A DNA stretch of 64,000 nucleotides, taken from Patescibacteria group bacterium. Lineage in GTDB: Bacteria; Patescibacteriota; UBA1384; JACPKC01. The notes beneath the pieces were generated by a model. The model was not told the origin of the DNA and did not search any database. It saw only the letters and a program-made list of their open reading frames with translations. Below are positions 3,357 to 23,808 of the stretch, one piece after another. Where the stretch lies: the NCBI GenBank assembly GCA_050944875.1, contig JBMNRW010000001.1:85436-149435 (forward strand), in the 5' to 3' direction. Position 1 is the first letter of the stretch; the number at the start of each line of letters is the position of its first letter. The position numbers and the translations under genes were made by a program.

Positions 3357-5324
3357 CTAGCGGATTTCTGCGCCGAACGATGCTGCGAGCGCCCGTTCGA
3401 GGCCTGTATGTACGTCGTTGATGTCGGTTTCGGTTAGGGTTCGTTCCGGGTGTGAGTAGTACACGTGGTACGCGATGCTCTTGCGGTCAGGGCCGAGCTT
3501 GTCGGAGCTGAACTCATCAAACAGCTCGACGAGTTCGATAGATTCGTGGAACCCTGCGATGAAGGTCCGCACTGCGGCCGCGTCCGTGGTCCGTGGTACG
3601 AGAAACGCGATATCGCGGGTAACTGGCGGGTACTTCGAGAGTGGTCGGTACGATTGAACGATGGACGGAATGAAGGGATTTGTAGGGATTCGACGGGCGG
3701 CAGTAAGTGCCGTGAGCGGGAGCTCAATGAGCGTGACGCGTTTCCGTCTGATCTTGTACTGCTGAAGGAGTTCGGCTGTGAGCTCGATGACGCTCGCCTG
3801 TGCTGTGAGTGCGCCGGAATCGAGGCCAATCCGGTCGGCGAACTGCGCAAGCCAGGCTTGGGCAGGCAGCGTGTTCCCGGCAAGGGCGATTGCGAGGTTT
3901 GTCGTTTCGCCGGCTGGCGTGAAGACGTGACCAATCTCGAATACCTGGACCGGGTCGAAGGCGCTGTTCGCCGCAATGACGCGCGTCAGGCCGGGGAGGA
4001 GTGAGGGGCGAAGGAAACGCAACGTCGGGTTGAGCGGGTTTGCAAGCTCACCGGTCACGGGCAGCCCAAATCGGCCAAGGTCAGACTGGCCAATGAAGCT
4101 GTACGTCTGTACCTCGGACAGTCCGAGCTCCACGAGGCGGTCTTTAATCCCCTCTGCCCATTCGTACTCCGAGCGGGGCTGGCTACCTTCCCATGTCCGG
4201 AGCCGTTTTGTTGGCACTGTATCGTTGAGACCGGCGAAGCGAGCAATCTCTTCGGCAACGTCTTGCCAGTAGGCGAGGTCGAACCGCCAGGACGGGGCAA
4301 TAACCTCGTAGGTATGCTTCGACACTGGCGTGACGGCGCAGCCGAGCGCCGCTAGGTGCGCACGCTGCGTATCGGCAGCTGTTGCGAAGCCGAGGAGGCG
4401 GTCAACCCGCTGGGCGTCGACAGGGAGTGGACTCTTTGGCGATGGCTTGGCACCTATGAGTAGTGCTCCGACAGCTTTCGCTCTGCCGAACGGTTTGGAG
4501 CCGAGAAGCGCGATCGCCTCCTCGAGGACTGCATAGGAGATGGTCGCGTCGACGCCGCGCTCGTACCGCGCTGAGGCGGGTGTGCGGTGGTTCAATGTGT
4601 TTGCCCCACGACGAATGCGCCCGGTGTCGAAGATTGCGGACTGCAGGAGGACGCGTGACGTCGTCAGCCGGACTTCTGAGTTTGCGCCGCCCTGGATGCC
4701 GGCCAGGTCAACGAGACCTTCCCGATCGGCGATGACGAGCGCGCCATCCGGCAACGTGTGCTCCGTGCCGTCGAGCGTGGTAAGGCTCTCGCCGGCACGC
4801 GATTCCCGAGCCGTCAGCGTCTCGCCAAGGAGGGCGTCGGCATCGAACGCGTGGAGCGGCTGTCCGTAAAGCTCCATGAGGTAATTCGTGACGTCGACGA
4901 TGTTCGAGATCGGTCGAATGCCGAGTAAGGTGAGTTCGCGCTGCAACCACTCCGGGCTCGGGCCAACGGAAACGTTTTCCAGGAGGACAAGGTGGTACTG
5001 CGTAACGAGTTCGGGCGGTTCGATCGCGAGCGCAGGAGTAGTGAGTGCAGGGAGCGCTTCGAGCGTGCCGGCAGCAGTGAGGTGCAAGGGCGCTGGCCGA
5101 CGGGCATGGGTACGCGTCCGGTACGCGACGAGCTCCCGGGCAAGGCCGAGGTGGCTCATGGCGTCGCCGCGGTTCGGGGTGATGCTGACGTCGAGCACGG
5201 GTGTCTCGCCGGGCAGTAGCTCAGTTTCGAAACCGAGGAGCGTCAGCGTCTCTGCGAGCAGGGCCGGGTCAACGTCGGCGAGCGACGGCGCGAGCTTGGT
5301 GAGGAGTGATGGGAGTACTCTCAT
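3357..5324 (-). CDS. pheT: phenylalanine--tRNA ligase beta subunit (no N-terminal tRNA-binding domain)
   Basis: LDVSITPNRGDAMSHLGLARE (B3/B4 region) and C-terminal FDX-ACB domain; 655 aa vs ~800 typical. Confidence 0.85.
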   Translation of the reverse strand: MRVLPSLLTKLAPSLADVDPALLAETLTLLGFETELLPGETPVLDVSITPNRGDAMSHLGLARELVAYRTRTHARRPAPLHLTAAGTLEALPALTTPALAIEPPELVTQYHLVLLENVSVGPSPEWLQRELTLLGIRPISNIVDVTNYLMELYGQPLHAFDADALLGETLTARESRAGESLTTLDGTEHTLPDGALVIADREGLVDLAGIQGGANSEVRLTTSRVLLQSAIFDTGRIRRGANTLNHRTPASARYERGVDATISYAVLEEAIALLGSKPFGRAKAVGALLIGAKPSPKSPLPVDAQRVDRLLGFATAADTQRAHLAALGCAVTPVSKHTYEVIAPSWRFDLAYWQDVAEEIARFAGLNDTVPTKRLRTWEGSQPRSEYEWAEGIKDRLVELGLSEVQTYSFIGQSDLGRFGLPVTGELANPLNPTLRFLRPSLLPGLTRVIAANSAFDPVQVFEIGHVFTPAGETTNLAIALAGNTLPAQAWLAQFADRIGLDSGALTAQASVIELTAELLQQYKIRRKRVTLIELPLTALTAARRIPTNPFIPSIVQSYRPLSKYPPVTRDIAFLVPRTTDAAAVRTFIAGFHESIELVELFDEFSSDKLGPDRKSIAYHVYYSHPERTLTETDINDVHTGLERALAASFGAEIR

Positions 5325-6013
5325 TGCTGCACCTCGAACTGCTTGAGGAACCGAAGGTTGCCGCTGTAGAAGTGACGGATATCGTCGATGCCGTGGCCGA
5401 GCATGACGAGGCGTTCGACGCCCATGCCAAAGGCAAAGCCCTGGTACCGCTCCGGGTCGACCCCCATCTTCTCGAGTACCTCAGGGTGAATCATGCCGGC
5501 GCCAAGAATTTCGAGCCAGGCGTCGCCTCGCCGCATGAAGACCTCGAGCCCAGGTTCGACGAACGGGAAGTAGCCAGGCACGAAGCGGACTTCAGTATCG
5601 GCGCCGTACATTGTCTGGAGGAAGCGCGTCAGGGTGTCTTTGAGGTGCGCGAGGCTCGTCGACTCGTCGATGACGAACCCCTCAAGTTGGTGGAACGTCG
5701 TCTCGTGCGTCGCATCGGTGGCTTCGTTGCGGAAGACGCGGCCGGGGACGAGGAAACGCACCGGCGGAGTCTGCCCCTGCATGCCGGGAACTTGGTGGGC
5801 AGAGGTCTGCGTCCGAGGTAGGCGTCCATCCTTGAGCCAGAATGTGTCCTGCATGCGGCGAGCTGGGTGGTCGGCGGCAACGCGCAGGTCATCAAAGTTG
5901 TGCTGCTCGGACACGATTTCGGGGCTGTCGAGAACTGTGAACCCCATACCTTTGAACACCGTAATTGCCCGCCTGAGGTACTGCGTGATCGGATGGAGGC
6001 TGCCGGCTGTCAT
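5321..6013 (-). CDS. pheS: phenylalanine--tRNA ligase alpha subunit, catalytic core only
   Basis: FRNEATDATHETTFHQLEGFVIDE motif 2. ORF runs to 6148, but the ATG at 6011-6013 overlaps the upstream gene's TGA (ATGA) and matches the start of the catalytic domain (MTAGSLHPITQYL...). The upstream 45 codons are Arg-rich and unlike a coiled coil. Confidence 0.75.
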   Translation of the reverse strand: MTAGSLHPITQYLRRAITVFKGMGFTVLDSPEIVSEQHNFDDLRVAADHPARRMQDTFWLKDGRLPRTQTSAHQVPGMQGQTPPVRFLVPGRVFRNEATDATHETTFHQLEGFVIDESTSLAHLKDTLTRFLQTMYGADTEVRFVPGYFPFVEPGLEVFMRRGDAWLEILGAGMIHPEVLEKMGVDPERYQGFAFGMGVERLVMLGHGIDDIRHFYSGNLRFLKQFEVQQ

Positions 6014-6399
6014 GCGTGGACCTCTCGTCGTTTGAACGATAGCGCGAGCTCGGCGAAGACGAGTGCGGTGCCGAGGAAGGCGATTTCCACCCAAGACGTG
6101 CTGCCAACCGCCCACAGTCCCGTTGCGCCGACCACGAAGATTGCACACTCGATTCCCTGTCGGAGCGCTGCCCGGGTCGCGTCGGCGAGTCGCTCTGGTC
6201 GCTGTCGAACCCGACGGACTTCAAGCCCGAGGAACGTCGCAAAAGAGGCGAGTGCGAGCGCGAGGCCGGCGCCCAAGGCAAGGTAACTCATCGCGTCGGC
6301 TTCGGGCTGCGGGGTCGCAGTGATAACCCAGAGCACAAGGAATGCTCCGAGGAAGAGCCCGGACGCCGTCCAGCTGTAGACTCTACCGTGCGTCGTCAT
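6010..6399 (-). CDS. hypothetical small integral membrane protein (4 predicted TM helices)
   Basis: 129-aa ORF with four hydrophobic segments; stop overlaps pheS start (ATGA) and start overlaps rbfA stop, suggesting translational coupling in an rbfA-x-pheS-pheT operon. Confidence 0.5.
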   Translation of the reverse strand: MTTHGRVYSWTASGLFLGAFLVLWVITATPQPEADAMSYLALGAGLALALASFATFLGLEVRRVRQRPERLADATRAALRQGIECAIFVVGATGLWAVGSTSWVEIAFLGTALVFAELALSFKRREVHA

Positions 6400-6737
6400 T
6401 CCTGCTCCCGCAGATCTTCGAGGAGCTCCTCGACGCGCGTAATCTCAGCTTGCTCCGCGTCATTGCGGAAGGTCAGCCGGGGAATCGCTTTAAAGTTGAG
6501 TTCAGGCTTCAGCGTGTCCTGGAGACGCGGGGCGAGCTGCTGGAGGGCGGCGACGTGCTCGTCAGTCCGGTCGCTCGCAACCAGGTAGACGTCTGCCTGG
6601 CGAAGATCACGCGTCGTTCGTACGCGCGAGACAGTGACAAGGTCGTTCCCCACGTCGTACTCTTCGGCGATAAGCTCGCCAAGTCGCCGCTGTAAGTGCG
6701 CGTCGACGCGTTCCATGCGGTGTGATTCGTGCTGCAT
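6396..6737 (-). CDS. rbfA: ribosome-binding factor A
   Basis: DLVTVSRVRTTRDLRQADVYLVAS resembles the RbfA KH-like core; start chosen at MQHESH (ORF extends to 6767). Confidence 0.7.
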   Translation of the reverse strand: MQHESHRMERVDAHLQRRLGELIAEEYDVGNDLVTVSRVRTTRDLRQADVYLVASDRTDEHVAALQQLAPRLQDTLKPELNFKAIPRLTFRNDAEQAEITRVEELLEDLREQE

Positions 6738-6827
6738 GGAGGCATCGTAGCACACGGGAGAGGTCATTCCAACCTGTTATTCGCTCGTGTGGCTGCGTAA
6801 GAACGGCCGGTCTGCCATACTGAATCC

Positions 6828-7466
6828 ATGCATGTGACGTTTACGTACGATCCGAGCCGCGAAGTCGTACCGCTCCGCTTTGGTATGACGTACACGGCCG
6901 GCGGACAGAGGCAGTTGACCGCGTTCGAGCAGCGGATCCTGGCGGCGCGGGTTGATCCGGCAGATGTAGGAGCAGTCGCATCGCTCGCACGGGTTGTGCT
7001 CGACGAGCACGGGGTGGATGTTGGAGCGGTGACTAGGCGGTACGAAGCGGCTTGGCTCCCGCACGAGGCGGAGGTGCTCCGTCGTTTTCAGCGCATGTTT
7101 GCAAATGACTGGGATCCTGGGCAGGTTGCGGCATACCTGACCGTCAGCAAGCGGTGCCCATACAACGTGGCGAACCGCCTATTCTTCGTCTCGTTCCTCC
7201 GGACGACGTACGTCGCGAACTCTCTTCACGAACTCCAGCACTTCTTCGTCCATGAGCTCTACGAGAACGACTTCGCGGCGCGCGGCTTAGGGAGTGAATT
7301 TCCTCACTTTAAGGAATCCCTCACCGTGCTCCTGAACGAGGCGTTCGCCGACATTATGGAAGCGCCGGATGCCGGGTACGAGATGCACGCAGAACGGCGC
7401 CAGCGGATTCTCGAGCGGTGGCGCGCTGGTGAAACAATCCGAGCAATCGCTGCCTCGTGGCAGTAG
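6828..7466 (+). CDS. hypothetical protein with HExxH motif (possible zinc-metallopeptidase-like)
   Basis: 212-aa ORF on the opposite strand between two minus-strand operons; contains LHELQHFFVHELYE (HExxH...E); no family recognised. Confidence 0.4.
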   Translation: MHVTFTYDPSREVVPLRFGMTYTAGGQRQLTAFEQRILAARVDPADVGAVASLARVVLDEHGVDVGAVTRRYEAAWLPHEAEVLRRFQRMFANDWDPGQVAAYLTVSKRCPYNVANRLFFVSFLRTTYVANSLHELQHFFVHELYENDFAARGLGSEFPHFKESLTVLLNEAFADIMEAPDAGYEMHAERRQRILERWRAGETIRAIAASWQ

Positions 7467-7478
7467 TCCTCCCTGCGT

Positions 7479-7513
7479 AAAAAAAACGTACGGCACCGAA
7501 AGGTGTCGTACGT
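7479..7513. terminator. rho-independent terminator (T8 on minus strand after rpsI; A8 on plus)
   Basis: ACGTACGGCACC-GAAA-GGTGTCGTACGT hairpin immediately preceded on plus by AAAAAAAA; on minus the hairpin is followed by TTTTTTTT, closing the rplM-rpsI transcript. Confidence 0.7.
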
Positions 7514-7539
7514 TCTGTTGCGTGATGTCTAGTTGAAGG

Positions 7540-7923
7540 TTACCGCTTTGCCCACTGCGGTGCGCGGCGGGCGCGCTTGAGGCCCGGTTTCTTCCGCTCC
7601 TTCTCGCGCGGATCGCGGGTCAGGAGGCCAGCCTTCTTGAGCGCTGACTTGAAATCAGCTTGGTACGCGACGAGTGCGCGGGCAATGCCGTGGCGGACTG
7701 CTTCGAGCTGTCCGTTTACACCACCGCCGAGGACTTTCGCAGAAACGTCCACCTTGTCGGCGACGCCGGCAAGCGTGAGCGGTTGGCGGACCACCGGTTG
7801 CTCGGCAGCGATCTCTTTGCCGTTGATCGTCACTTTACCGGTGCCGGTTGTGAGTCGGACTCGGGCGACGGCGCGCTTTCGGCGGCCGACCGCGGCAACG
7901 TAGGATGTCTTTCGTTCTGCCAT
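7540..7923 (-). CDS. rpsI: 30S ribosomal protein S9
   Basis: Typical S9 with C-terminal RRAPQWAKR. Confidence 0.95.
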   Translation of the reverse strand: MAERKTSYVAAVGRRKRAVARVRLTTGTGKVTINGKEIAAEQPVVRQPLTLAGVADKVDVSAKVLGGGVNGQLEAVRHGIARALVAYQADFKSALKKAGLLTRDPREKERKKPGLKRARRAPQWAKR

Positions 7924-7925
7924 GG

Positions 7926-8312
7926 TTACTCCTCAGCTCCGGTCGCGTGGATCGTCAGGCGCTTCATGAGCTCTTTCCGGAGCCGGTTGTCCGGGAGCAT
8001 GCCGTAGACGGCTCGTCGGATGACCTCTGCCGGATCGCGTTCCATAAGGTGCTTCAGTGTCTCCGACTTCAAGTTTCCGAGGTAGCCGGTGTGCTTGTAG
8101 TACACCTTGTCATCGAGCTTGCGACCCGTGACGCGCACCTTGGAAGCATTGATGACGGTGACGAGGTCGCCCGTGATCTTGTGCGGTGCGAACGCAACTT
8201 TGTCTTTGCCGCGGAGTGCGACGGCGATCTCGGTGGCGAGACGGCCGAGCACCTTGCCCGACGCATCAAACGTCCGGGTTGCGCTCTCAGTTGGGAGGTA
8301 CGTCTTCGCCAT
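7926..8312 (-). CDS. rplM: 50S ribosomal protein L13
   Basis: MAKTYLPTESATRTF..., L13 family. Confidence 0.95.
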   Translation of the reverse strand: MAKTYLPTESATRTFDASGKVLGRLATEIAVALRGKDKVAFAPHKITGDLVTVINASKVRVTGRKLDDKVYYKHTGYLGNLKSETLKHLMERDPAEVIRRAVYGMLPDNRLRKELMKRLTIHATGAEE

Positions 8313-8315
8313 AGG

Positions 8316-8756
8316 TTACTCCGTTGCCTTCGCTGTCGTGTTCTTTGCGGCTGGCGTCGCGGTGTTCTTCGCTGCCTTCTCAGGCTTCGCGGCCCGGTCG
8401 ACGAGGAGTACTATTGCCTTAGGTGCCGCGTCACCGACGCGGTGGCCGGTCTTTAGGATGCGGGTGTAGCCACCTGGACGGGTAACTGCTCGCTTGGCGA
8501 GGTCGTCGACGAGTTTCGTCACAGTGTCGTCGTGTCCCACGATCGCGATAAGGCGTCGTCGCTCTGCGAGCGAGGCCATGCCTTCGGCTGAAGCAACGCG
8601 CTTCGCCATGGTGATCCACCGCTCGACGATCGACCGGACCTCCTTGGCCTTCGGGAGTGTGGTTTCGAGCTTCTCCGCACGCACGAGCAGGCGCCCCATG
8701 TTTGTGAGGAGGTGTTCGCGGTGCGCTTTCGTGCGTCCGAACTTCCGGGTCATCAT
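8316..8756 (-). CDS. rplQ: 50S ribosomal protein L17
   Basis: MMTRKFGRTKAHREHLLTNM... plus an Ala/Lys-rich C-terminal tail. Confidence 0.95.
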   Translation of the reverse strand: MMTRKFGRTKAHREHLLTNMGRLLVRAEKLETTLPKAKEVRSIVERWITMAKRVASAEGMASLAERRRLIAIVGHDDTVTKLVDDLAKRAVTRPGGYTRILKTGHRVGDAAPKAIVLLVDRAAKPEKAAKNTATPAAKNTTAKATE

Positions 8757-8761
8757 CTGCC

Positions 8762-9541
8762 TTACTCGGCCGATTCGGCCGATTCCTTCTTCGTCTTCTT
8801 CGCTGCCTTCTTCGGCTTCACCGACTGGGTCGCTGCTGCGTCGACTGAGGCCTGAGTAGCGTCGCGGACGATCGTGAAGTGCTCGGTGAGGATCTGCGAG
8901 GCGTGCACCATCGCTTCAGCCGGCGTGACGGTCCCGTCCGTGGTGAGCTCGATAGAGAGCTTGTCGAAGTCGGTTCGGTCGCCGACACGGGTGTGCTCAA
9001 CGTCGTAGTGGACGCGCTTGATTGGCGTGAAGATCGAGTCGACGGCAATCGTGCCGATCGGCAGCTTCTCACGGTCTTTCTTCTCAGTCGGGAGGTAGCC
9101 CTGTCCCTTCTCGATGGTGACTTCCATGGAGAGCTTGCCATCCTTGTCGAGGGTAGCCAGGTAGTGCTCAGGATCGGCGATCGCTACATCGGCGTTCGGC
9201 GCAAAATCCGCAGCCGTGACTGTGCCGGCGCCCTTCTTCTCGAGCTTCAAGACCACTGGCGCGTCGCTCTCAGAGCGGACACGGAGCGTCTTGAGGTTCA
9301 AGATAAGGTCGACGACGTCTTCGCGCATGCCCTTGACCGTTGAGAACTCGTGATCGACGCCCTGGATCTTCACGTACGCGACCGCTGCGCCTTCGAGCGA
9401 GGTCAGGAGAACGCGTCGGAGCGAGTGCCCAACGGTCATGCCGTACCCTGGCGAGAGCGGTTCAATGACGAAGGTAGAGACCCGGTCGGATTCCGGCTGC
9501 TCGGTGATCGTCATGCGCTCGGTTTCAGGAAGTGTGTACAT
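8762..9541 (-). CDS. rpoA: DNA-directed RNA polymerase alpha subunit, NTD only (no alpha-CTD)
   Basis: 259 aa: alpha-NTD (dimerisation/assembly) followed by a Lys-rich tail (KPKKAAKKTKKESAESAE). rplQ starts 6 nt downstream, leaving no room for a CTD. Confidence 0.9.
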   Translation of the reverse strand: MYTLPETERMTITEQPESDRVSTFVIEPLSPGYGMTVGHSLRRVLLTSLEGAAVAYVKIQGVDHEFSTVKGMREDVVDLILNLKTLRVRSESDAPVVLKLEKKGAGTVTAADFAPNADVAIADPEHYLATLDKDGKLSMEVTIEKGQGYLPTEKKDREKLPIGTIAVDSIFTPIKRVHYDVEHTRVGDRTDFDKLSIELTTDGTVTPAEAMVHASQILTEHFTIVRDATQASVDAAATQSVKPKKAAKKTKKESAESAE

Positions 9542-9565
9542 TGGTGCCTCTCTTTCCCCTTAGTA

Positions 9566-10165
9566 CTACCGTGAGTAGAACTCAACGATGAGCTGCTCTT
9601 CGATTTCCGTTGGGATCTGCTCGCGTGACGGAATCTCGAGGAGCGTGCCTGTCAAACCAGTACCGCGCTTAAGCCAAACTGGTAGCTCGGCTGCTGACGG
9701 TTTTCGCTCGAGCTTCACGAGTTCAACAGTGTCGCCAGCATTCACCTGATAGGACGGGATGTTGACCTTCTTGCCATTGACGCGGACGTGGCCGTGTGTC
9801 ACGAACTGCCGTGCCTGTGGTCGTGAGTCGGCGAAGCCGAGGCGGAAGACGATGTTGTCGAGCCGGCGTTCGAGGAGCTGGAGGAGCGTGGTGCTCGTGT
9901 CTGTTGTCGCCCGGCTCGCGGTCTGGAAGTACCGGCGGAACTGGCGCTCGAGGATGCCGTAGATCGCCTTCATCTTCTGCTTTTCGCGGAGCTGTCGGCC
10001 GTACTCAGAGACTTTCCCTCGCCGTCGACGTGGGCCGTGCTGGCCTGGCGCGTAGGCGCGGCGGGTCATCGGGTTCTTCGGGCCAGCGCTGCGTTCACCT
10101 TTTAGGAAGAGGTTGACGCCGGCGCGGCGACTAATGCGGTCTGTTGGTCCGGTGTAGCGAGCCAT
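9566..10165 (-). CDS. rpsD: 30S ribosomal protein S4
   Basis: MARYTGPTDRISRRAGVNLFLKGER..., S4 family. Confidence 0.95.
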   Translation of the reverse strand: MARYTGPTDRISRRAGVNLFLKGERSAGPKNPMTRRAYAPGQHGPRRRRGKVSEYGRQLREKQKMKAIYGILERQFRRYFQTASRATTDTSTTLLQLLERRLDNIVFRLGFADSRPQARQFVTHGHVRVNGKKVNIPSYQVNAGDTVELVKLERKPSAAELPVWLKRGTGLTGTLLEIPSREQIPTEIEEQLIVEFYSR

Positions 10166-10173
10166 AGGGATCC

Positions 10174-10554
10174 TTACACGCGCCGGGGCTTCTTCGCCCG
10201 GACGCCGTTGTGTGCGATTGGGGTAACGTCGGTAATGCTCGTCACGGCGACGCCTGTTCCGGCGATCGATCGGACCGCTTGCTCGCGGCCAGAACCGACA
10301 CCGCTCACGAACACGTCAGCTTCCTGGAAGCCGCGGAGTTTCGCCTTGTCGAGTGCGGCGTGCATAGCAGTCTGCGCAGCGTACGGGGTCGCCTTGCGGG
10401 CGCCCTTAAATCCCTGGCCGCCGGCGCTCGCCCACGCGATAACGCCGCCCTGCGCGTCAGTGACGGAGATGATGGTATTGTTGAACGTGGCCTGGACGTA
10501 GATCCGGCCACGGGCCACTGGTGCCAGCTTCTTCGCTTTTCGTGTTACTGCCAT
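10174..10554 (-). CDS. rpsK: 30S ribosomal protein S11
   Basis: GRIYVQATFNNTIISVTD, S11 family. Confidence 0.95.
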   Translation of the reverse strand: MAVTRKAKKLAPVARGRIYVQATFNNTIISVTDAQGGVIAWASAGGQGFKGARKATPYAAQTAMHAALDKAKLRGFQEADVFVSGVGSGREQAVRSIAGTGVAVTSITDVTPIAHNGVRAKKPRRV

Positions 10555-10598
10555 GGTACCTCTCGCTTGCTCTGACTAGATGACGGGTGTTGTCGGGC

Positions 10599-10985
10599 TT
10601 ACGTCTTCGACGCGGTTGGCTTGCGGCCGCTGCCGACAGTGACCCGTTTACCGCGCTTCGTCCGGGCGTTCGTCTTCGTCCGCTGGCCACGGGCCGGCAG
10701 TCGCTTTGCGTGCCGGGTGCCACGGTAGGTGCCGATCTCGATGAGACGCTTCACGTTCTGCGTGGTCTGCATCCGGAGTTCGCCCTCAACGGTGTGCTGC
10801 TTTTCGATGAGTGCGCGAATGCGCTCGAGTTCGTCATCGGTAAGCTTCATCGTTCGGACGCCGCCATCGATCTTCGCCTGAGCGAGGATCTGCTCTGACT
10901 TCTTCCGGCCAATGCCAAAGATCGCGGTGAGTGCGATGACGATCGGCTTGTTGTTCGGGAGGTTGATCCCTGCGATGCGTGCCAT
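10599..10985 (-). CDS. rpsM: 30S ribosomal protein S13
   Basis: MARIAGINLPNNKPIVIALTAIFGIG, S13 family. Confidence 0.95.
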   Translation of the reverse strand: MARIAGINLPNNKPIVIALTAIFGIGRKKSEQILAQAKIDGGVRTMKLTDDELERIRALIEKQHTVEGELRMQTTQNVKRLIEIGTYRGTRHAKRLPARGQRTKTNARTKRGKRVTVGSGRKPTASKT

Positions 10986-10991
10986 AGCGTA

Positions 10992-11105
10992 CTACCCCTG
11001 GCGCTGCTTGTGCTTCTTATTCTGGCAAATGACCCAGACACGACCGTGGCGCCGAATGATGCGGCACTTCTGGCAACGGGGTTTTGCGGATGCGGAGACT
11101 TTCAT
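10992..11105 (-). CDS. rpmJ: 50S ribosomal protein L36 (not in ORF track)
   Basis: Minus-strand ATG at 11105 gives [37 protein letters not shown], the Zn-ribbon L36 signature; sits between infA and rpsM as expected. Confidence 0.9.
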
Positions 11106-11114
11106 GGCGACCTC

Positions 11115-11369
11115 TTAGCGACCTTGTGTTGGGTTCGTGTCGTGCGGGTTATACCGGTAACTGATACGGCCTCGGGTGAGGTCGTACGGAGAGAGCTCCA
11201 CCTTTACGCGGTCGCCCGGGAGGATGCGGATGCGGTGCATCCGAACTTTGCCGCCCAGTGTCGCGAGCACGGTGTGCTCACCCTGCTTCATCTCGAGGGT
11301 TACCCGAAACATAGCATTCGGTAACGCTTCCGTTACCGTTCCATCGAATTCAACAACGTTTTTTGACAT
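11115..11369 (-). CDS. infA: translation initiation factor IF-1
   Basis: [17 protein letters not shown]...[24 protein letters not shown]1-like OB fold. Confidence 0.95.
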
Positions 11370-11417
11370 GTGGAATTGCGTGAACTATCGGGAGTGTACT
11401 GGAAGTCTGGCTGACTG

Positions 11418-12188
11418 TCAACGGGTTTGCACCGCTTGCCGTGACCCTGTGAGGAGCTCGGCACCATCCGGGGTGACGAGCACCGTCTCCTCGACATGGG
11501 CGGCGCGCGTCCGATCGGCGGCGATAATTGTCCAGTCATCTGCTTCGGTTCTGACGTCTCCGCTCCCTCTCGTGAGCATCGGTTCAATACAGAACGTCAT
11601 GCCGGCCTGGAGCGAAAGGCCCGTTCCGCGGTTCCCGTAATTGGGGATATCCGGCGCCTCGTGAAGCGATCGCCCGATGCCGTGGCCGGTGAGGTCGCGG
11701 ACGAGCCCGTACCCATGCCGTTCGATGACAGTCTGGATTGCCGCTTGGACGTCGCCGAGCTTCACGCCTGGCCGGATCTGGCCGAAGCCGGCGTAGAACG
11801 CCTCCCACGCCGCCGCAACGAGCGCACTGTCGGCACTGTCGGCTGGCGGAACGACGAGTGAGCGAGCAGCATCAACGTGCCAGCCCTGGAGCTTGACGCC
11901 GAGATCGACGCTCACGAGGTCGCCAGGAGCGATCGGACGCTGGGAGGGAATGCCGTGCACTACCTCTTCGTTGATAGAGATGCACAGCGAGGCTGGGTAG
12001 CCGCGGTACCCCTTGAAGGCTGGTTCGGCGCCGTGGTCACGGATATAGGTTTCGGCAAGTCGATCAAGTGCCACGCCGGTTGCGTCCGGCTGGACAGCGT
12101 GCACGACAACGTCGAGCGCGCCAGCAAGGATTTCCCCTGCTCGGCGCATGCGTGCAATTTCTTCGGGCGTGCGGAGGTCAACAGCCAT
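11418..12188 (-). CDS. map: type I methionine aminopeptidase
   Basis: Catalytic core (HGIGRSLHE, metal ligands); start placed at MAVDLRTPEEIARMRRAG (ATG 12186-12188), directly after the adk stop. The ORF's extra 47 N-terminal codons overlap adk. Confidence 0.85.
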   Translation of the reverse strand: MAVDLRTPEEIARMRRAGEILAGALDVVVHAVQPDATGVALDRLAETYIRDHGAEPAFKGYRGYPASLCISINEEVVHGIPSQRPIAPGDLVSVDLGVKLQGWHVDAARSLVVPPADSADSALVAAAWEAFYAGFGQIRPGVKLGDVQAAIQTVIERHGYGLVRDLTGHGIGRSLHEAPDIPNYGNRGTGLSLQAGMTFCIEPMLTRGSGDVRTEADDWTIIAADRTRAAHVEETVLVTPDGAELLTGSRQAVQTR

Positions 12189-12190
12189 GA

Positions 12191-12772
12191 TTAGAGGATG
12201 CCGCGCTTGATGAGCGCCGCAACGATCGCTTCGTGCACGTGTTCTATCGTGTCGTCGCCGTTGATATCGATCACCCGGCCTTCCCTGCGAAAGTGGTCCA
12301 CGACCGGTCGGGTTTCGGCGTAGGACCATGCGAGCCGCTTCTCAATCATCTCTTTCGTATCGTCGTGCCGGCCACGCTTCAGGAGTCGCTCGACCGAGAT
12401 ATCGTGCGGGACTTCGAGGTTGATGACGATCGGTTCAGCGAGCTTGTGCTTCGCACGGATATTCGTGAAGGCCCGAGCGTTCTCCATCGAGCGGAGGACG
12501 CCGTCGAGAATCGCGCCATGCGACACATCGGTTTTTGCGAGGTGGTCGTCAAGGACATCCTGCCAAACGCCAATTGGGACAAGCTCACCTGCTGAAAGGA
12601 TCGCTTTGACGCGCTGCCCGAGTTCTGTCGGTTCGGCTGCAAGCGCACGGAACAGGTCGCCCATCGTGATGATTGGCACGTTGCCGAGCTCCTTTTTTAA
12701 GAGGTTCGCCTGCGTGCCCTTTCCGCTTCCGCTTGGACCGGTGAAGAGAAGAACAACCTTATGATCGCCCAC
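12191..12772 (-). CDS. adk: adenylate kinase
   Basis: P-loop LLFTGPSGSGKGTQANLL; a GTG start at 12770-12772 preceded by GAAGGAG gives a 193-aa protein. The ORF track's upstream ATG would overlap the preceding gene by 53 nt. Confidence 0.85.
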   Translation of the reverse strand: MGDHKVVLLFTGPSGSGKGTQANLLKKELGNVPIITMGDLFRALAAEPTELGQRVKAILSAGELVPIGVWQDVLDDHLAKTDVSHGAILDGVLRSMENARAFTNIRAKHKLAEPIVINLEVPHDISVERLLKRGRHDDTKEMIEKRLAWSYAETRPVVDHFRREGRVIDINGDDTIEHVHEAIVAALIKRGIL

Positions 12773-12785
12773 CCTGACTCCTTCG

Positions 12786-13829
12786 CTACTTCTGGATAGT
12801 AATGAGTTGGTTTGCCGCTCGTCGCTCGATTCGCGCACCAGTCACCAGGTCAACCAAGTGAATAGTACCGCTCGGCAGCTCATCCGACGTCGTCGGTGCG
12901 ACGAGTACCCCGAGCACACCGGCACCGACGCAGAGGCTCCGCTCGCGGCCAGGAATATCGATGAGCGGGGCTCGTGCGCCGTCAGTGAGAGAGAGACGCT
13001 CGACGACGGCTACTGCTGCGCCATCGGCGGTGCGGGGCTCGACGACGAGCGCCAACGCGTTCTCGTCGATCCACGCGACATCGACCACCGCTTGGGTGTT
13101 TGGCAGTGTTGCGCGATCAGTTGGTTTGCCGGATGCGTCCACCGTTGCAAGGACTGTCCCCCCGTCGGGACTGGTCTGTCCCCTTGCGAATGCAATCGTC
13201 TGTCCATCTGGTGACCAGGCAAGCGGTCCGATTCCCGCTGTGTCTGACGCGACGGTTTTGCTGCTTCCACCTTCGAGTGAATCTATGACCAAATTAAACC
13301 CGAAGTCGCGCTCGGCATTGTTGAAATACACTGCTGCAACTTTACCCGTTGCGGACACAACCGGCGTGGCACTGCTCATCGGGAACGTACTTCTGCGGAC
13401 GGCGAGATCGCCGGTTCCGTCAAGCTGGATCTCAACAAGCGAAGATTCGGCTGAGCCGTTCCGTCGAGCAATCGCGAAGACCCGGGTGCCATCTGTCGCG
13501 GTTCCGAGGACACGCTCGAGCTTCAGTTCCTCATCTGTGTCGGTAAAGAGGATGCGTTCAGTTCCGTCCGGTTCGGTGCGGACGATCGTCGTGACCATAC
13601 CGGTCTTTCGGAGGGTTACCGTGGCGACGGCGATCGATTCGGCGGTGTTCGTCGACGTGTCTTCGGTCGTCGTCTTGACAGCGGGTTCTGCCTCGTCAGA
13701 CTTCGGTTCGGTTGGCTCTGTTGGCAACGGCGCTGAAGCCTGGTCTGCGACGAGGAGGATACCCCCGAAGCCGAGCGCGAGGAGCGCCAGCGTAAAGAAC
13801 CCCTTCGCTGCGGACGACTTAGAACTCAT
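12786..13829 (-). CDS. secreted/membrane-anchored PD40 (TolB-like) beta-propeller repeat protein
   Basis: N-terminal hydrophobic anchor, Thr/Glu/Pro-rich linker, then LAWSPDGQTIAF-type PD40/WD40-like repeats; inserted between secY and adk. Confidence 0.6.
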   Translation of the reverse strand: MSSKSSAAKGFFTLALLALGFGGILLVADQASAPLPTEPTEPKSDEAEPAVKTTTEDTSTNTAESIAVATVTLRKTGMVTTIVRTEPDGTERILFTDTDEELKLERVLGTATDGTRVFAIARRNGSAESSLVEIQLDGTGDLAVRRSTFPMSSATPVVSATGKVAAVYFNNAERDFGFNLVIDSLEGGSSKTVASDTAGIGPLAWSPDGQTIAFARGQTSPDGGTVLATVDASGKPTDRATLPNTQAVVDVAWIDENALALVVEPRTADGAAVAVVERLSLTDGARAPLIDIPGRERSLCVGAGVLGVLVAPTTSDELPSGTIHLVDLVTGARIERRAANQLITIQK

Positions 13830-15081
13830 AGCGTCGGGTTTGCAGGTGGGCGCGGATCTGGCGCATCGTGTCGAGGACTACCGACACGATAATGAGCGTC
13901 GACGTTCCGCCAAGCACGAGCGTCTGGATGTTCGTGAGTGCCTGGACGATGAACGGCAGGACGGCGAGGAGGCCAAGGAAGAGCGCGCCGAAGAGCGTCA
14001 GCCGTGAGAGTACGGCGCCGAGGTAGTTCGCGGTTTCGCGGCCGGGGCGGACACCAGGGACGAAGCCGCCTTGGCGCTGGATGTTCTCAGCGACCTGCTC
14101 CGGCTGGAAGACGACGAACGTGTAGAAGTACGTGAAGATGATGACGAAGAGGAAGTACGCGATACCGTAGAACGTGTCGTTTCCGAAGAGGTCGATCGTT
14201 TTCTCGGCCGCGTCTTGAATCCAGGCGACGTCGACGGTCTGGAGGAACCGGGCGACCACCGGAGGGAAGAGCATGAGCGAGAGCGCGAAGATGATCGGGA
14301 TGACGCCGGCCATTGCGACTTTGAGCGGGAGGTTTGTCGAGACGCCACCCTGCCGGGCAAGGCCGCGGACGCGACGCGCATAGATGATCGGAATCTGCCG
14401 CTCGGCCTCGTTCACGAAGACGATCGCGACGGTAGCCAGGAGGGCGAGAACCGCGAAAATGATGACGCTCAAGTAGCCGGTCTGGTCGATTGTCGCGTAC
14501 GTCTGCGAGAGCGATACAGGAATCCCAGTCATAATGCCGAGCGCGATGAGGAGTGAGATGCCGTTCCCAATGCCGTACTCACTGATGAGCTCGCCAAACC
14601 ACATGACGAGGAGCGTTCCAGCGCTGATCGTGAGGAGAGTCGCGATGAGGTCGAAGCCGCCAGCGAGCTCAATGACGCCTTGGTTCCTAAGGAGGAGGAG
14701 TGTCGAGTAGCCCTGGAGGACAGCGAGCGGCACGGTGAGGAGTCGCGTGTACTGGTTGATCTGCTGGCGACCGGCTTCGCCCTCTTTCTGGAGCTCTTCA
14801 AGGCGTGGCACGATGACGACGAGGAGCTGGAAGATGATCGAGGCGGTAATGTACGGGCCGACGCCCATGAGGACGAGGGAGAAGTTCTCCATGGATCCAC
14901 CAGTGAACAGATTGAGAAGGCCGAAGAGCTCATTGCGCGCGAAGAACTCCCGGAGCGCCGACAGGTCGACGCCTGGCATCGGGATGTGCGCGAGAACGCG
15001 GAACAAGACGAGGAGCCCCATCGTCGTGAGGACTCGTCGTCTGAGGTCAGGATTCGCGAAGAGTGTGCGGAGCGTCGTCAT
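13819..15081 (-). CDS. secY: preprotein translocase subunit SecY
   Basis: 10-TM protein with SecY signatures (FTGGSMENFSL, IPIIYARR). Confidence 0.95.
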   Translation of the reverse strand: MTTLRTLFANPDLRRRVLTTMGLLVLFRVLAHIPMPGVDLSALREFFARNELFGLLNLFTGGSMENFSLVLMGVGPYITASIIFQLLVVIVPRLEELQKEGEAGRQQINQYTRLLTVPLAVLQGYSTLLLLRNQGVIELAGGFDLIATLLTISAGTLLVMWFGELISEYGIGNGISLLIALGIMTGIPVSLSQTYATIDQTGYLSVIIFAVLALLATVAIVFVNEAERQIPIIYARRVRGLARQGGVSTNLPLKVAMAGVIPIIFALSLMLFPPVVARFLQTVDVAWIQDAAEKTIDLFGNDTFYGIAYFLFVIIFTYFYTFVVFQPEQVAENIQRQGGFVPGVRPGRETANYLGAVLSRLTLFGALFLGLLAVLPFIVQALTNIQTLVLGGTSTLIIVSVVLDTMRQIRAHLQTRRYEF

Positions 15082-15124
15082 CGTCGTCTCTTTCTCCCCT
15101 TCCCCTTGGGGCGAGCGCCGCTAC

Positions 15125-15577
15125 TCAGGCGTCCGCAGTGGTTCGTTTGGTCGCGCGCTTCTTGCCGTACAGCGTCTCGTACACGGAAGCCGTGAACGAC
15201 AGGCCGCGGAACTTCAGTGTTTTCGTGAGCGTGCCAGTGCCGACGATACGTGCCGCCTGAGCACCGCCGTGCGCAAGACCCTTGGCCTTCAAGGTGTCAA
15301 GCGAGACGACATCGCCGTTGGCGAACATCTTATCGAGCTGGGCGAGCGTTACGGTCGCGCGAACGGTGCGCGGGTTATTCCCGAGACCACGGAGCTTCGG
15401 CAAGCGCATATAGAGCTTGCTCTGCCCACCTTCGAAGCCGGTCGGGATGTTCGCACCAGTGCGTGCCTTCTGGCCTTTAGTGCCGAGACCAGCGGTCTTT
15501 CCCTGGCCAGCGGCAATGCCACGGCCAACCCGCTTCGCGCGGTTCGTGGTACGTGGGAGGTTGTGTAGGTCTGCCAT
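15125..15577 (-). CDS. rplO: 50S ribosomal protein L15
   Basis: GRGIAAGQGKTAGLGTKGQKAR, L15 family; rpsE stop is 3 nt upstream, so there is no rpmD. Confidence 0.95.
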   Translation of the reverse strand: MADLHNLPRTTNRAKRVGRGIAAGQGKTAGLGTKGQKARTGANIPTGFEGGQSKLYMRLPKLRGLGNNPRTVRATVTLAQLDKMFANGDVVSLDTLKAKGLAHGGAQAARIVGTGTLTKTLKFRGLSFTASVYETLYGKKRATKRTTADA

Positions 15578-15579
15578 GG

Positions 15580-16101
15580 CTACTCCTTCGCTACCTTGAG
15601 CGATGCGAGCGTTTCAAGGGTAGCTCGGACGTTGTTGATCTTGTTTGAGCTCCCGATGATCTTCGAGAGGATGTTCCGGATACCAGCGAGCTCAATCACG
15701 GCACGAACTGGGCCACCAGCGATGATGGACGTTCCCGCTGCCGCTGGTTTTAGGAAGACTACTGCGCTGCCGTACTTGTGCGTCGTTTCGTGCGGGATGG
15801 TGTCGTTGACGATCGGCACGTCGATGAGGTGCTTCTTCGCCTGGTTGACCGCCTTCTGGATCGACGACTGTACGTCGCCGGCCTTGCCGACGCCCATGCC
15901 CACCTTCCCCTTCTTGTTCCCGATGACGACGAGCGCGCGGAACCGCATGCGCTTGCCACCCTTTACGGTGCGGGAGACACGGTCGATCTCGACGACGCGC
16001 TCTTCGAATTCCTCCTCGACGCGCTCTTCGCGTTCGCGGCTCGGCCGATTGTTCGGTCGGTTGCCACCTGGACGGTTGAATCGTTCTGGTCGGTCTGCCA
16101 T
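15580..16101 (-). CDS. rpsE: 30S ribosomal protein S5
   Basis: VVEIDRVSRTVKGGKRMRFRALVVIGN, S5 family. Confidence 0.95.
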   Translation of the reverse strand: MADRPERFNRPGGNRPNNRPSREREERVEEEFEERVVEIDRVSRTVKGGKRMRFRALVVIGNKKGKVGMGVGKAGDVQSSIQKAVNQAKKHLIDVPIVNDTIPHETTHKYGSAVVFLKPAAAGTSIIAGGPVRAVIELAGIRNILSKIIGSSNKINNVRATLETLASLKVAKE

Positions 16102-16109
16102 GTGTCTCC

Positions 16110-16457
16110 TTAGAGTGCGAGCCCTGCGGCGCGTGCGGCGTCCGCAAAGGCGGCGACGCGGCCATGGTACTGGTAGCCTCGGCGATCGAGCACGGCAGCC
16201 GTAATGCCAGCAGTGCTCGCTTTCTCAGCGATGAGCGTGCCCACGGCAGTCGCCTGCTCCATGCCGGCCGACGATCTCTTGAGCTCGCTGTCCGACGCGG
16301 CGACGAGCGTCTTCCCTGCCTCGTCATCGATGAGCTGAGCGCGGAAGTGCTTCGCGGTTCGTTCGATTGCGAGGCGCGGACGGTTCGCCGTACCGCGAAC
16401 CACGGCGCGGATGCGTCGGATGCGGGCGGCTCGTTGTGTGGTTCGTGTTGCGTGCAT
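16110..16457 (-). CDS. rplR: 50S ribosomal protein L18
   Basis: PRLAIERTAKHFRAQLIDD, L18 family. Confidence 0.95.
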   Translation of the reverse strand: MHATRTTQRAARIRRIRAVVRGTANRPRLAIERTAKHFRAQLIDDEAGKTLVAASDSELKRSSAGMEQATAVGTLIAEKASTAGITAAVLDRRGYQYHGRVAAFADAARAAGLAL

Positions 16458-16466
16458 GTGCTTCCT

Positions 16467-17009
16467 TTACGCGCCGGCTTTCGCGGCTTTCCCGGCCTTC
16501 CGCTGGACGATCTCATCGGAGTAGCGGATGCCTTTCCCCTTGTACGGCTCCGGCGGGCGGACGCGGCGGATGTTCGTCGCGACCTGGCCCACGAGTTGCT
16601 TGTCGATGCCGGTGACGGTGATGACGTTCTTCTGGACTGTGATCTCGATCCCCTCTGGTACGTCGAAGTTCACCGGGTGCGAGTAGCCGACGTTCAAGAC
16701 GAGCGTCTTCCCCTGCATCGCGGCCCGGTACCCGACGCCGTTAATCTCGAGCGATTTCGTATACCCGTTGGAGACGCCGGTGACGACGTTTGCGATGAGC
16801 CGAGTGCTTAGGCCGTGGAACGCCTTGGCGCGCTTGCCACCACCGCTCGTGGTGACGGTAATGACACTGTCCGCCTGTTCAACCACCGCGTACGGCGGCA
16901 GCGCCAAGCGGAGCTCGCCCTTCGGTCCTTTGGCAATGAGGTCTTTCCCGTCCACCGTTACGGTGACGTCGGCCGGAACGTGAATTGGTCGCTTACCAAT
17001 ACGGCTCAT
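16467..17009 (-). CDS. rplF: 50S ribosomal protein L6
   Basis: MSRIGKRPIHVPADVTVTV...; start ATG 17007-17009 overlaps the rpsH stop (ATGA). Confidence 0.95.
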   Translation of the reverse strand: MSRIGKRPIHVPADVTVTVDGKDLIAKGPKGELRLALPPYAVVEQADSVITVTTSGGGKRAKAFHGLSTRLIANVVTGVSNGYTKSLEINGVGYRAAMQGKTLVLNVGYSHPVNFDVPEGIEITVQKNVITVTGIDKQLVGQVATNIRRVRPPEPYKGKGIRYSDEIVQRKAGKAAKAGA

Positions 17010-17407
17010 GACAGTACCTCGCAAATGACTTCGCCGCCCATATGCCGTCGCTTCGCCTCGGCCCCGGTCATGAGACCGGCAGGCGTCGAGACAATCATGA
17101 GGCCGAAGTCGCCACGTGGCCGCGGAAGCTCTGCTGCGCCACGGTAGATCCGGAGCCCTGGGCGCGAGATGCGTCGGAGCGTTCGAATCGCCGGGATGCC
17201 GCCGTGGTACTTCAGCGTCACGATAAGCTGCTTCTTGACCCCGTCTTCAGCCGTCTCGGTGGCGACGTCCTCGATGTACTCCTTCTCTTTGAGGATCTCG
17301 AGGATGCCAGCCTTGAGGCGGGAGTGCGGGATCACGACCGTCGGCTTCTGGAGCGCGGCGGCGTTTCGGATTCGGGTGAGCATGTCTGCAATTGGGTCCA
17401 TACGCAC
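17006..17407 (-). CDS. rpsH: 30S ribosomal protein S8
   Basis: DPIADMLTRIRNA, S8 family. Confidence 0.95.
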   Translation of the reverse strand: MRMDPIADMLTRIRNAAALQKPTVVIPHSRLKAGILEILKEKEYIEDVATETAEDGVKKQLIVTLKYHGGIPAIRTLRRISRPGLRIYRGAAELPRPRGDFGLMIVSTPAGLMTGAEAKRRHMGGEVICEVLS

Positions 17408-17409
17408 TC

Positions 17410-17595
17410 CTACCAGGATGACTTTACGACGCCGGGGATCTCCCCGCGGCTTGCTCGTTCACGGAAGCAAATCCGGCACAGGCCGAACCGTCGAAGGTAG
17501 CCGTGACCGCGACCGCAGATCCCGCACCGGTTGACCCGGCGAGTCGAGAACTTCGGCCGTCGCTTCGATTTGGCAATCATTGACTTCTTCGCCAT
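17410..17595 (-). CDS. rpsN: 30S ribosomal protein S14, type Z (zinc-binding, 61 aa)
   Basis: [23 protein letters not shown] CxxC...CxxC motif. Confidence 0.95.
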
Positions 17596-17599
17596 AGCC

Positions 17600-18142
17600 T
17601 TAGCTCCGTTTCACGAGTGGGAACCCGAGCGCTCGTAGGAGCGACTCTGCGGCCCGATTGTCGGTTGCTGTTGTGGTAATCGTAATACCGACCCCGTAGA
17701 ACTCCCGGACGTTGTCCTGGTTGATCTCAGGGAAGACGGTGTGTTCGCGAACGCCGAAGCTGTAGTTTCCGCGCCCGTCAAACCCAGTGGTCGGGAGGCC
17801 GCGGAAGTCGCGGATGCGCGGGAGGACAACCGTCACGAGGCGCTGGAAGAAATCTTCCATCCGCTTACCCCGGAGCGTCACCGCGTACCCAACAACCTCA
17901 CCGGCGCGGAGCTTGAACCCGGCAATCGCCTTGCGGGCGGTGCGGGTCACTGGCTTCTGGCCCGTAATGAGCGCCAGGTCGCGGGTAACGATCTCCTCGA
18001 GCCCCTGCGTACCGCGTCGCGAACCCGTGCCGACGTTCACGCTGATCTTCGCGAGGCGTGGTACCGCGTGCGCGTTCTTCACGCCGAGCTCTTTCGTGAG
18101 CGCGGGCGCAACGGTCTTCGTGTACTGCTCTTTGAGGCTCAT
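17600..18142 (-). CDS. rplE: 50S ribosomal protein L5
   Basis: [20 protein letters not shown]..., L5 family. Confidence 0.95.
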
Positions 18143-18402
18143 GCGGTCCTCGCTTTACGGGTCGGTTTGCCGTCGGCGTCGACGCGGAGCACGTTGCTCG
18201 CGTGGACTGCGGCGTTGGTCGTCACGATGCCGCCGTGTGGCTGCTTCGGGGTCGGTTTCGTGTGCTTCTTCACTTCGCCCACGCCCTCAACGACGAGACG
18301 TGATTTCGACGGGAGGACGCGCAGGACCTTGCCGCGCTTCCCCTTGTCCTTGCCGGAGATGACGAGGACGGTGTCGCCGGTTTTGATCTTTAGGGTCGTC
18401 AT
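18139..18402 (-). CDS. rplX: 50S ribosomal protein L24
   Basis: [29 protein letters not shown] motif; start placed just after the rplN stop (ORF extends to 18513). Confidence 0.9.
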
Positions 18403-18403
18403 A

Positions 18404-18772
18404 CTACACCACCTCTGGCGCCAAGGAGACAATCTTCTGGTAGCCGCGGCCGCGAATTTCACGGGCAACCGGTCCGAGGACGCGAGTGCCGCGTGGCTGG
18501 CCGGCGTCGTCAATAATCACCACCGCGTTGTCGTCAAAGCGGATCGTCGAGCCGTCAAAGCGCTGAAATGGCGCGCGCTGGCGGACAATGACCGCCTTCA
18601 CGACCTCTTTGCGCTTCACGGTGCCGCGAGGTAGCGCCTCCTTGACGCTCGCGACGATGATATCGCCGAGCTGGGCAGCATCATGGCTGCGTCCGCCAAT
18701 GACCCGGATGCACTGGATAACCTTCGCGCCGGTGTTATCGGCGACATGGAGTCTGGAGTACGGCTGAATCAT
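18404..18772 (-). CDS. rplN: 50S ribosomal protein L14
   Basis: [25 protein letters not shown]14 family. Confidence 0.95.
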
Positions 18773-19032
18773 GCGAGCTCCTCAACGGTGCTCCCGCGGC
18801 TGACGACTCGCGTCAGCACGTGGCTCTTCCGCTTGCTCACCGGCCGGCACTCCGTGATTTCCACGGTGTCACCGAGGTTGACTGTCATGTCAGTTGGGAC
18901 GTGCACGAGGAACGAGCGCGTCACACGGTACGGCTTCTCGTAGATGGGGTGCCGACGCACGTCTTCGACCCGGACCCGGATGGTCGGGAGGTTGACGTGG
19001 ACGACAGTGCCTGTTTGCGCAGTTCGTGCCAT
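18769..19032 (-). CDS. rpsQ: 30S ribosomal protein S17
   Basis: [33 protein letters not shown]; start placed after the rpmC stop. Confidence 0.9.
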
Positions 19033-19034
19033 GG

Positions 19035-19271: not shown

Positions 19272-19272
19272 A

Positions 19273-19683: not shown

Positions 19684-19692
19684 GCTCGCTCC

Positions 19693-20885: not shown

Positions 20886-20893
20886 ACGTGTCC

Positions 20894-21172: not shown

Positions 21173-21177
21173 GGCTC

Positions 21178-22023: not shown

Positions 22024-22025
22024 GG

Positions 22026-23649: not shown

Positions 23650-23808
23650 ACACCCTCATTTATGGGCACGTACGAAAAAGGGCCGGGATCTGTCCACCTT
23701 GGGCGGCGATTTCCCGACTCACCCTGCTCGCACTGTTAGGGGTTCGCTGAACTTCTTGGGGCAGTGTACGTGTTTAGAGACACCTTGTCAACGGCTACGT
23801 GCCGGCGG

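Follow-up and report, generated by a model that had tools for sequence, protein, structure and literature searches.

Does a stretch of bacterial DNA that has no gene for a ribosomal protein and encodes shortened aminoacyl-tRNA synthetases record damage to one genome, or the ordinary condition of the lineage it comes from? The question is raised by a 64-kb segment of contig JBMNRW010000001.1 (the window, meaning the whole stretch analyzed), in which rpmD, the gene for ribosomal protein L30 (uL30), is missing between rpsE and rplO, and both subunits of phenylalanyl-tRNA synthetase (PheRS; PheS and PheT) as well as aspartyl-tRNA synthetase (AspRS) are short. A first-pass annotation placed these features at positions 5321 to 17595, a range to the left of which the PheT and AspRS genes in fact lie. 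We conclude that the window is very probably a chromosomal segment of an uncultured bacterium of the Candidate Phyla Radiation (CPR; Patescibacteria), with its translation genes in an inherited, lineage-typical state of reduction, not in one due to damage or artefact. The missing L30 and the shortened synthetases are real but normal for the lineage, and the link between L30 absence and the CPR is correct and already published for it. The RNA polymerase alpha subunit (RpoA) is truncated as well, which the first-pass annotation did not flag and which fits the same pattern of reduction.

Absence of ribosomal protein uL30

The junction at which rpmD usually lies is made up of three features.

15580–16101, minus strand: rpsE (uS5), 173 aa, with Pfam S5 N- and C-terminal domains; TIGR01021 score 194.3 against a cut-off of 164; stop codon TAG at 15582–15580
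15578–15579, minus strand: spacer of 2 nt (CC) from the rpsE stop to the rplO ATG, the usual rpmD (uL30) site, read directly from the sequence
15125–15577, minus strand: rplO (uL15), 150 aa, ATG at 15577; TIGR01071 score 115 against a cut-off of 78; Pfam Ribosomal_L27A

The 3′ end of rpsE reads AAG GAG TAG, followed by CC and then by the ATG of rplO, and a 2-nt spacer therefore leaves no room for rpmD. The first-pass annotation was right that rpmD is absent here; the distance of 3 nt that it gave is actually 2 nt, a difference that is immaterial. Neither S5 nor L15 carries extra length that could represent a fused L30, both being fully covered by their own domains. An L30 profile was built from the proteins of E. 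coli, B. subtilis, and Thermus. It recovered L30 between S5 and L15 in Chloroflexota/Dehalococcoidia control loci (L072, L079, and L080) with E values from 1e-23 to 3e-25 and gave no match in the window or in 77 related CPR loci drawn from a search with the window SecY. A second round, with the control sequences added, filters off, and all window frames of at least 20 aa searched, returned noise only (best E 0.64). Some CPR loci have wider S5-L15 gaps, of up to 413 nt, and an L30 hidden in these was ruled out, as the L30 hidden Markov model (HMM) found no match there. L1 and L9 are also absent from the window, which is uninformative since both are normally encoded elsewhere in the genome.

The ribosome of this organism would resemble other CPR ribosomes, which it matches in S5-L15 adjacency, in lineage placement, and in a short S14 of 61 aa, with no substantive difference, and it would be assembled without uL30. 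The alternative, that L30 is retained and either encoded elsewhere in the genome or too divergent to be recognized, draws on the 64-kb span of our search and on the shortness of L30 (~60 aa), which could let a divergent copy escape detection. We consider it very unlikely. The unfiltered search of the window gave noise, against control matches at E 1e-23 or better. All CPR bacteria are described as lacking L30, with S5 adjoining L15, by Brown et al. 2015 as cited in Tsurumaki et al. 2022 (bioRxiv 10.1101/2022.01.07.475337); the latter source reports that 69 complete CPR genomes and 828 drafts yielded no L30, with S5 and L15 adjacent, and L30 is among the families missing from the CPR in a survey covering 2177 CPR genomes (PMC6744442). 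The first-pass statement that loss of L30 is described for CPR bacteria is borne out by the same sources. L30 loss alone is nevertheless not diagnostic of the CPR because it recurs in Mollicutes, Halanaerobiales, and several endosymbionts; uL30 is a late-assembling surface protein with repeated losses (bioRxiv 10.1101/2021.01.31.429008).

Shortened phenylalanyl-tRNA synthetase

The two PheRS genes follow an open reading frame (ORF) for a hydrophobic protein.

6010–6399, minus strand: hydrophobic, probably membrane ORF of 129 aa between rbfA and pheS (membrane call from reading of the sequence)
5321–6013, minus strand: pheS, 230 aa, class II catalytic module only; PF01409 (E 2.4e-85) spans the protein
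3357–5324, minus strand: pheT, 655 aa; B1, B3/4 (editing), B5, B6/7, and B8 kept, B2 excised; Pfam B3_4, B5, tRNA_synthFbeta, and FDX-ACB

The description of PheS as a catalytic core of about 230 aa holds in every respect. The N-terminal coiled-coil domain PF02912 has no Pfam match in the window protein; TIGR00468 scores 273.9 against a cut-off of 237.45 with only positions 67–323 of its 324 matched and 1–66 unmatched; and the protein aligns with residues ~101–327 of E. coli PheS. The gene starts at 6013, where its ATG and the stop of the preceding ORF overlap in the sequence ATGA; the longest possible PheS ORF (275 aa, from a GTG at 6148) was rejected in favor of this start on the strength of that overlap. 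We found no separately encoded PheS N-terminal domain in the window, and the upstream ORF was rejected as a split coiled coil, its product being hydrophobic and probably a membrane protein. Among the best 120 PheS homologs, which reach down to 54% identity, all 120 are 177–272 aa long, mostly 225–232 aa, with PF01409 as the main domain, and PF02912 was found in none.

For PheT, TIGR00472 scores 414.3 against a cut-off of 402.65, and the B2/tRNA_bind OB-fold domain PF01588 gave no Pfam match. When the protein is aligned with Thermus PheT, query residues 6–38 pair weakly with Thermus 6–36, and query residue 38 joins Thermus 151; by the domain scheme in PMC3275996, the EMAP-like B2 domain has thus been cleanly excised, with B1 left intact. 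An HMM of B2 built from 52 canonical representatives likewise gave no match to the window PheT. The first-pass claim that PheT has no N-terminal tRNA-binding domain accordingly stands, the misplacement of the gene aside. PheT is 615–657 aa in the relatives L001, L002, L006, and L007 (numbers of this form are our handles for loci), and when the best 150 PheT representatives of 50%-identity clusters are compared, B2 is missing from 98, whose median length is 674 aa, and present in 52, whose median is 800 aa. Thermus beta-His261 and beta-Glu334 are editing-site residues. The His is invariant in all full-length PheT representatives and present in the window; at the position equivalent to beta-Glu334 (residue 228), the window and the B2-less proteins closest to it have Gln, and B2-containing PheT has Glu.

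Compared with canonical (alpha-beta)2 PheRS (Thermus thermophilus and E. coli; PDB 1b70 and 3pco), the window enzyme shares the alpha catalytic module and beta B1, B3/4, B5, B6/7, and B8, whereas its alpha subunit has no N-terminal coiled coil (~100 residues, which helps bind tRNA-Phe), and its beta subunit has no B2 OB fold (~113 residues) and carries the Gln described above. Since the catalytic module and B6/7, which form the subunit interface, are retained, the enzyme is most likely still an (alpha-beta)2 tetramer, and it would still edit. In canonical PheRS, tRNA-Phe binding involves the coiled coil of PheS as well as the beta subunit, and B8 reads the anticodon, whereas in human mitochondrial PheRS a catalytic module and a B8-like anticodon-binding domain suffice to recognize and charge tRNA-Phe (PMC3275996). 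That minimal monomer resembles the window enzyme in having neither coiled coil nor B2, but it is a single chain without an editing domain, whereas the window PheRS has two subunits and an editing module. As in the mitochondrial enzyme, tRNA-Phe may be held mainly via B8 and the catalytic core. We infer this mode of binding with some reserve, because deletion of the alpha coiled coil from Thermus PheRS reportedly abolishes tRNA binding. Deletion of B2 from E. coli PheRS is said to be tolerated, with reduced editing.

AspRS without the GAD insertion

The AspRS gene follows pheT.

1960–3348, minus strand: aspS, 462 aa, bacterial-type AspRS without GAD; Pfam tRNA_anti-codon and tRNA-synt_2, with PF02938 absent

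A linker of 13 residues stands in place of the ~110-residue GAD insertion, the sequence running KPDLR-RDKNDPNEIAFAY-VVDFPL. The alignment with Thermus AspRS-1 is split accordingly: a first stretch ends at query residue 290 (Thermus 296, after KPDLR), and a second well-aligned stretch resumes at about query residue 300 (Thermus ~405), just before VVDFPL. Together with the Pfam result, the alignment and the linker uphold the earlier description of an AspRS without GAD, leaving only the location of the gene to be corrected. Among the best 120 AspRS homologs, all 120 are without GAD and 454–493 aa long, and their names include Berkel-, Uhr-, Sung-, and Parcubacteria and "Patescibacteria group." Both flanking motifs were matched in 99 of the 120, and in all of these the linker is exactly 13 residues long and its pattern is conserved, as one would expect if GAD was deleted once in an ancestor, under selection. 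Uhr-, Sung-, Magasanik-, and Parcubacteria, including a complete Uhrbacteria genome, have a GAD-less AspRS too.

Archaeal-type AspRS (AspRS2, ~430 aa; PDB 1n9w and 1b8a) is similar in size and likewise has no GAD. An archaeal-type identity was rejected, with 483 bits for Thermus AspRS-1 against 152 bits for the archaeal type in matches to PDB proteins, leaving a bacterial AspRS with its insertion deleted. Equivalog scores are well above threshold (NF001750, 638.6 against 443; TIGR00459, 593.5 against 373.85). With its anticodon-binding OB fold and all catalytic regions intact, the protein would be a bacterial-type class IIb homodimer working without GAD. The GAD domain adjoins the active site of AspRS, and it may have an effect on the dynamics of the transamidosome (PMC3367201); none of AsnRS, GatCAB, and tRNA-Asn is encoded in the window.

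RNA polymerase alpha without its C-terminal domain

The truncated RpoA is encoded on the same strand.

8762–9541, minus strand: rpoA, 259 aa, alpha N-terminal domain and Lys-rich tail, no C-terminal domain (CTD); Pfam RNA_pol_L (PF01193) and RNA_pol_A_bac (PF01000) only

TIGR02027 scores 265.7 against a cut-off of 227.8 and is matched over positions 2–233 of 298; in the alignment, the N-terminal assembly domain is followed by a Lys-rich tail of ~35 residues, and the alpha-CTD, PF03118, has no Pfam match in the window protein. PF03118 is absent from 119 of the best 120 RpoA homologs, several of which are named Berkelbacteria. An HMM of the alpha-CTD matched 36 other loci and nothing in the window, and we found no separately encoded alpha-CTD in the window or in the flanks of its relatives. 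The clade loci L001, L002, and L005–L007 also encode CTD-less RpoA; in other CPR loci RpoA is 303–313 aa with a recognizable CTD, and in Chloroflexota it is 361–373 aa. E. coli alpha truncated after its N-terminal domain reportedly assembles an RNA polymerase active on activator-independent promoters and in basal transcription. The window protein likewise has the alpha N-terminal domain alone for core assembly, and it differs from that construct in that its truncation is natural, conserved across the clade, and accompanied by the Lys-rich tail. Low-complexity C-terminal tails rich in Lys, Ala, and Pro are also present on L17 (8316–8756), L22 (20424–20885), and L4 (22358–23011), all encoded on the minus strand.

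Phylogenetic placement of the window

The window SecY was searched against one genome per GTDB species. The top match is a metagenome-assembled genome (MAG) labeled Candidatus Berkelbacteria (L001), with 76% identity and 62% GC ("62_29" stands in its isolate name), followed by a MAG labeled Candidatus Saccharibacteria (L002), with 71% identity and 63% GC. The next matches are MAGs named Magasanik-, Uhr-, Ames-, Levy-, Gottesman-, Woese-, and Woykebacteria and "Patescibacteria group," with MAGs labeled Gammaproteobacteria mixed in; Chloroflexota stand at the bottom of the list, at 49–50% identity only. The gene order from S5 to aspS, including an ORF with a PD40-like match after secY, is common to L001, L002, and the window. 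The host clade is the one that submitters labeled Candidatus Berkelbacteria or Saccharibacteria, and it has members of 62–63% GC. The GC content of the window genome is ~60%, and several other CPR loci have 58–61%; high GC is no argument against CPR membership, because the closest relatives and these other loci are also high in GC.

The first-pass annotation had proposed a phylogeny of concatenated proteins. Ours, built by neighbor joining from 13 such proteins, covers 63 taxa and 2333 columns; with its root placed on the two Chloroflexota that met the marker filter, it nests the window in the CPR set. The window pairs with L002; L006 and L007 join next, and then L005. The placement signal agrees across every protein examined. 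The suggestion of a CPR/Patescibacteria-like reduced lineage despite high GC is thus supported by the SecY relatives, their GC content, the gene order, and the tree.

The window is a new high-GC member of this known clade, absent from the GTDB species representatives, in which no SecY exceeds the identity given above. An exact-protein look-up with the window SecY found no match. The same look-up with AspRS found an identical protein on a 34-kb contig (L081) that overlaps the window and comes from an independent Logan assembly (SRR23967303). This contig encodes AspRS and RpoA identical to those of the window, and gene calls on it give the same genes and lengths, including a PheS of 230 aa. Many of the close CPR-type SecY relatives (L008, L009, L013, L016, and others) carry the label "uncultured Gammaproteobacteria bacterium" and one is labeled "Nanoarchaeia archaeon"; these look like mislabeled MAG records.

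Could the segment come instead from a reduced lineage outside the CPR, for example an endosymbiont, a Mollicute, or a streamlined member of the Chloroflexota, in which L30 and the accessory domains disappeared independently? L30 loss does recur outside the CPR, high GC is unusual for the CPR generally, and Chloroflexota are among the SecY matches. We give this origin even less credence than a retained L30: the Chloroflexota are the most distant of the matches, carry L30, and have a long RpoA, whereas the closest relatives, with the same gene order and similarly high GC, are CPR-labeled MAGs, and the tree nests the window among the CPR.

Several considerations do weigh against an origin in a CPR lineage with inherited reduction. 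The sequence covers just 64 kb of the genome, and absence of rpmD genome-wide therefore rests on the literature on the lineage and not on this genome; the neighbor-joining tree carries no support values; and the labels of many MAGs cannot be trusted, with several close relatives entered as Gammaproteobacteria. The homolog evidence for PheS comes from the best 120 matches, all of them short.

Order of the losses and reality of the short enzymes

A more distant relative, L082 (PheS 56% identical, 45% GC), has the same gene order as the window and by seven ribosomal and RNA polymerase proteins is closest to L005–L007 and the window. It compares with the window as follows.

PheS: window 230 aa, core only; L082 227 aa, core only
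AspRS: window 462 aa, no GAD; L082 477 aa, no GAD
PheT: window 655 aa, no tRNA_bind; L082 756 aa, with tRNA_bind
RpoA: window 259 aa, no alpha-CTD; L082 310 aa, with alpha-CTD

The losses are thus stepwise: the loss of the coiled coil from PheS and that of GAD from AspRS are older and broader, and those of PheT B2 and the alpha-CTD are derived and confined to the clade of the window. The first two are placed earlier because they are common to L082 and because a GAD-less AspRS occurs in the complete Uhrbacteria genome.

Shortened synthetases of this kind are nothing unusual in the lineage, and public databases annotate them routinely. That PheS, PheT, and AspRS are instead truncated pseudogenes or artefacts of assembly or gene calling, with functional full-length copies elsewhere, is the least credible of the alternatives, as nothing specific favors it beyond the start-site ambiguity that the 275-aa PheS ORF reveals, and against it stand the same PheS and AspRS architectures in more than 100 independent homologs each and the 98 B2-less forms among the 150 PheT representatives, clean deletion boundaries at domain borders with conserved linkers, passage of every equivalog cut-off with catalytic and editing motifs retained, an identical sequence in the independent Logan assembly, and ATGA overlaps that mark an intact, tightly packed gene run. 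Our literature searches found nothing relevant on shortened CPR synthetases, GAD-less bacterial AspRS, or CTD-less RpoA, which is weak evidence of novelty given thin coverage of subscription journals; no paper was found on coiled-coil-less PheRS or CTD-less alpha as natural features.

Gene order and other features of the window

Apart from the opposite-strand features named below, the leftmost 40 kb of the window has all its genes on the minus strand.

15125–23649, minus strand: S10/spc cluster in the order L3-L4-L23-L2-S19-L22-S3-L16-L29-S17-L14-L24-L5-S14 (61 aa)-S8-L6-L18-S5-L15, from ORF translations
7540–15081, minus strand: secY, PD40-like ORF, adk, map, infA, rpmJ (10992–11105), rpsM, rpsK, rpsD, rpoA, rplQ, rplM, and rpsI, from ORFs and Pfam; gene calls on L081 agree
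6396–6767, minus strand: rbfA, from a Pfam RBFA match on L081

Most proteins of the S10/spc cluster, which served as tree markers, were named by reading their translations and not by profile search. An unannotated ORF on the opposite strand lies between rpsI and rbfA. From rbfA through the 129-aa ORF, pheS, and pheT to aspS the genes form a tightly packed run: by coordinates, the start of the 129-aa ORF overlaps the end of rbfA by 4 nt and its stop overlaps the pheS start as ATGA, pheS and pheT overlap as ATGA, and a spacer of 8 nt falls within pheS-pheT-aspS. After aspS come a D-Ala-D-Ala carboxypeptidase gene and a PaaX-like gene.

The 347-aa ORF between secY and adk (12786–13829, minus strand) has an N-terminal hydrophobic segment and a weak match to PD40 (beta-propeller repeat), and it is kept at the secY-adk position in L001–L007 at 23–37% identity. 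The S10 gene (27052–27387) is split from L3 (23008–23649) by a 3.4-kb insertion (23650–27051) with an opposite-strand dUTPase-like gene, a TerC/DUF475 membrane protein, tRNA-Ala(GGC), and a nucleoside deoxyribosyltransferase-like gene. The 820-nt gap between rpsG and fusA (30810–31632) contains only an unannotated 206-aa ORF with a TTG start (30943–31563) and no Pfam match. A bacterial class A RNase P RNA (160 bits; 55845–56192, minus strand) adjoins tRNA-Gln(TTG), and nearby are a protein with a type IV secretion pilin-like domain (56258–57064) and UvrA.

Implications

Confirming the lineage of the window aids the reading of the rest of it, since features that look like defects are the lineage's normal state. 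The added value is modest: a map of dispensable domains (uL30, the PheS coiled coil, PheT B2, AspRS GAD, and the RNA polymerase alpha-CTD) together with the order of their loss. Natural minimal enzymes of this kind could serve as templates for minimal-cell and synthetase engineering and as tests of the roles of GAD and B2. Specialists might take an interest only in two natural losses, that of the coiled coil from PheS and that of the alpha-CTD from RNA polymerase. A tentative and rather doubtful possibility is that the Berkelbacteria-like CPR clade of the window has gone beyond other CPR: in addition to the older losses (uL30, the coiled coil of PheS, and GAD from AspRS), it would have lost PheT B2 and the whole alpha-CTD, with a Lys-rich tail in place of the latter. 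If these proteins are the sole copies and active, they would prove from nature that the coiled coil, reportedly required in Thermus, is dispensable for the charging of tRNA-Phe by a bacterial PheRS, and that a free-standing bacterial lineage transcribes without UP-element recognition or alpha-CTD-dependent activation.

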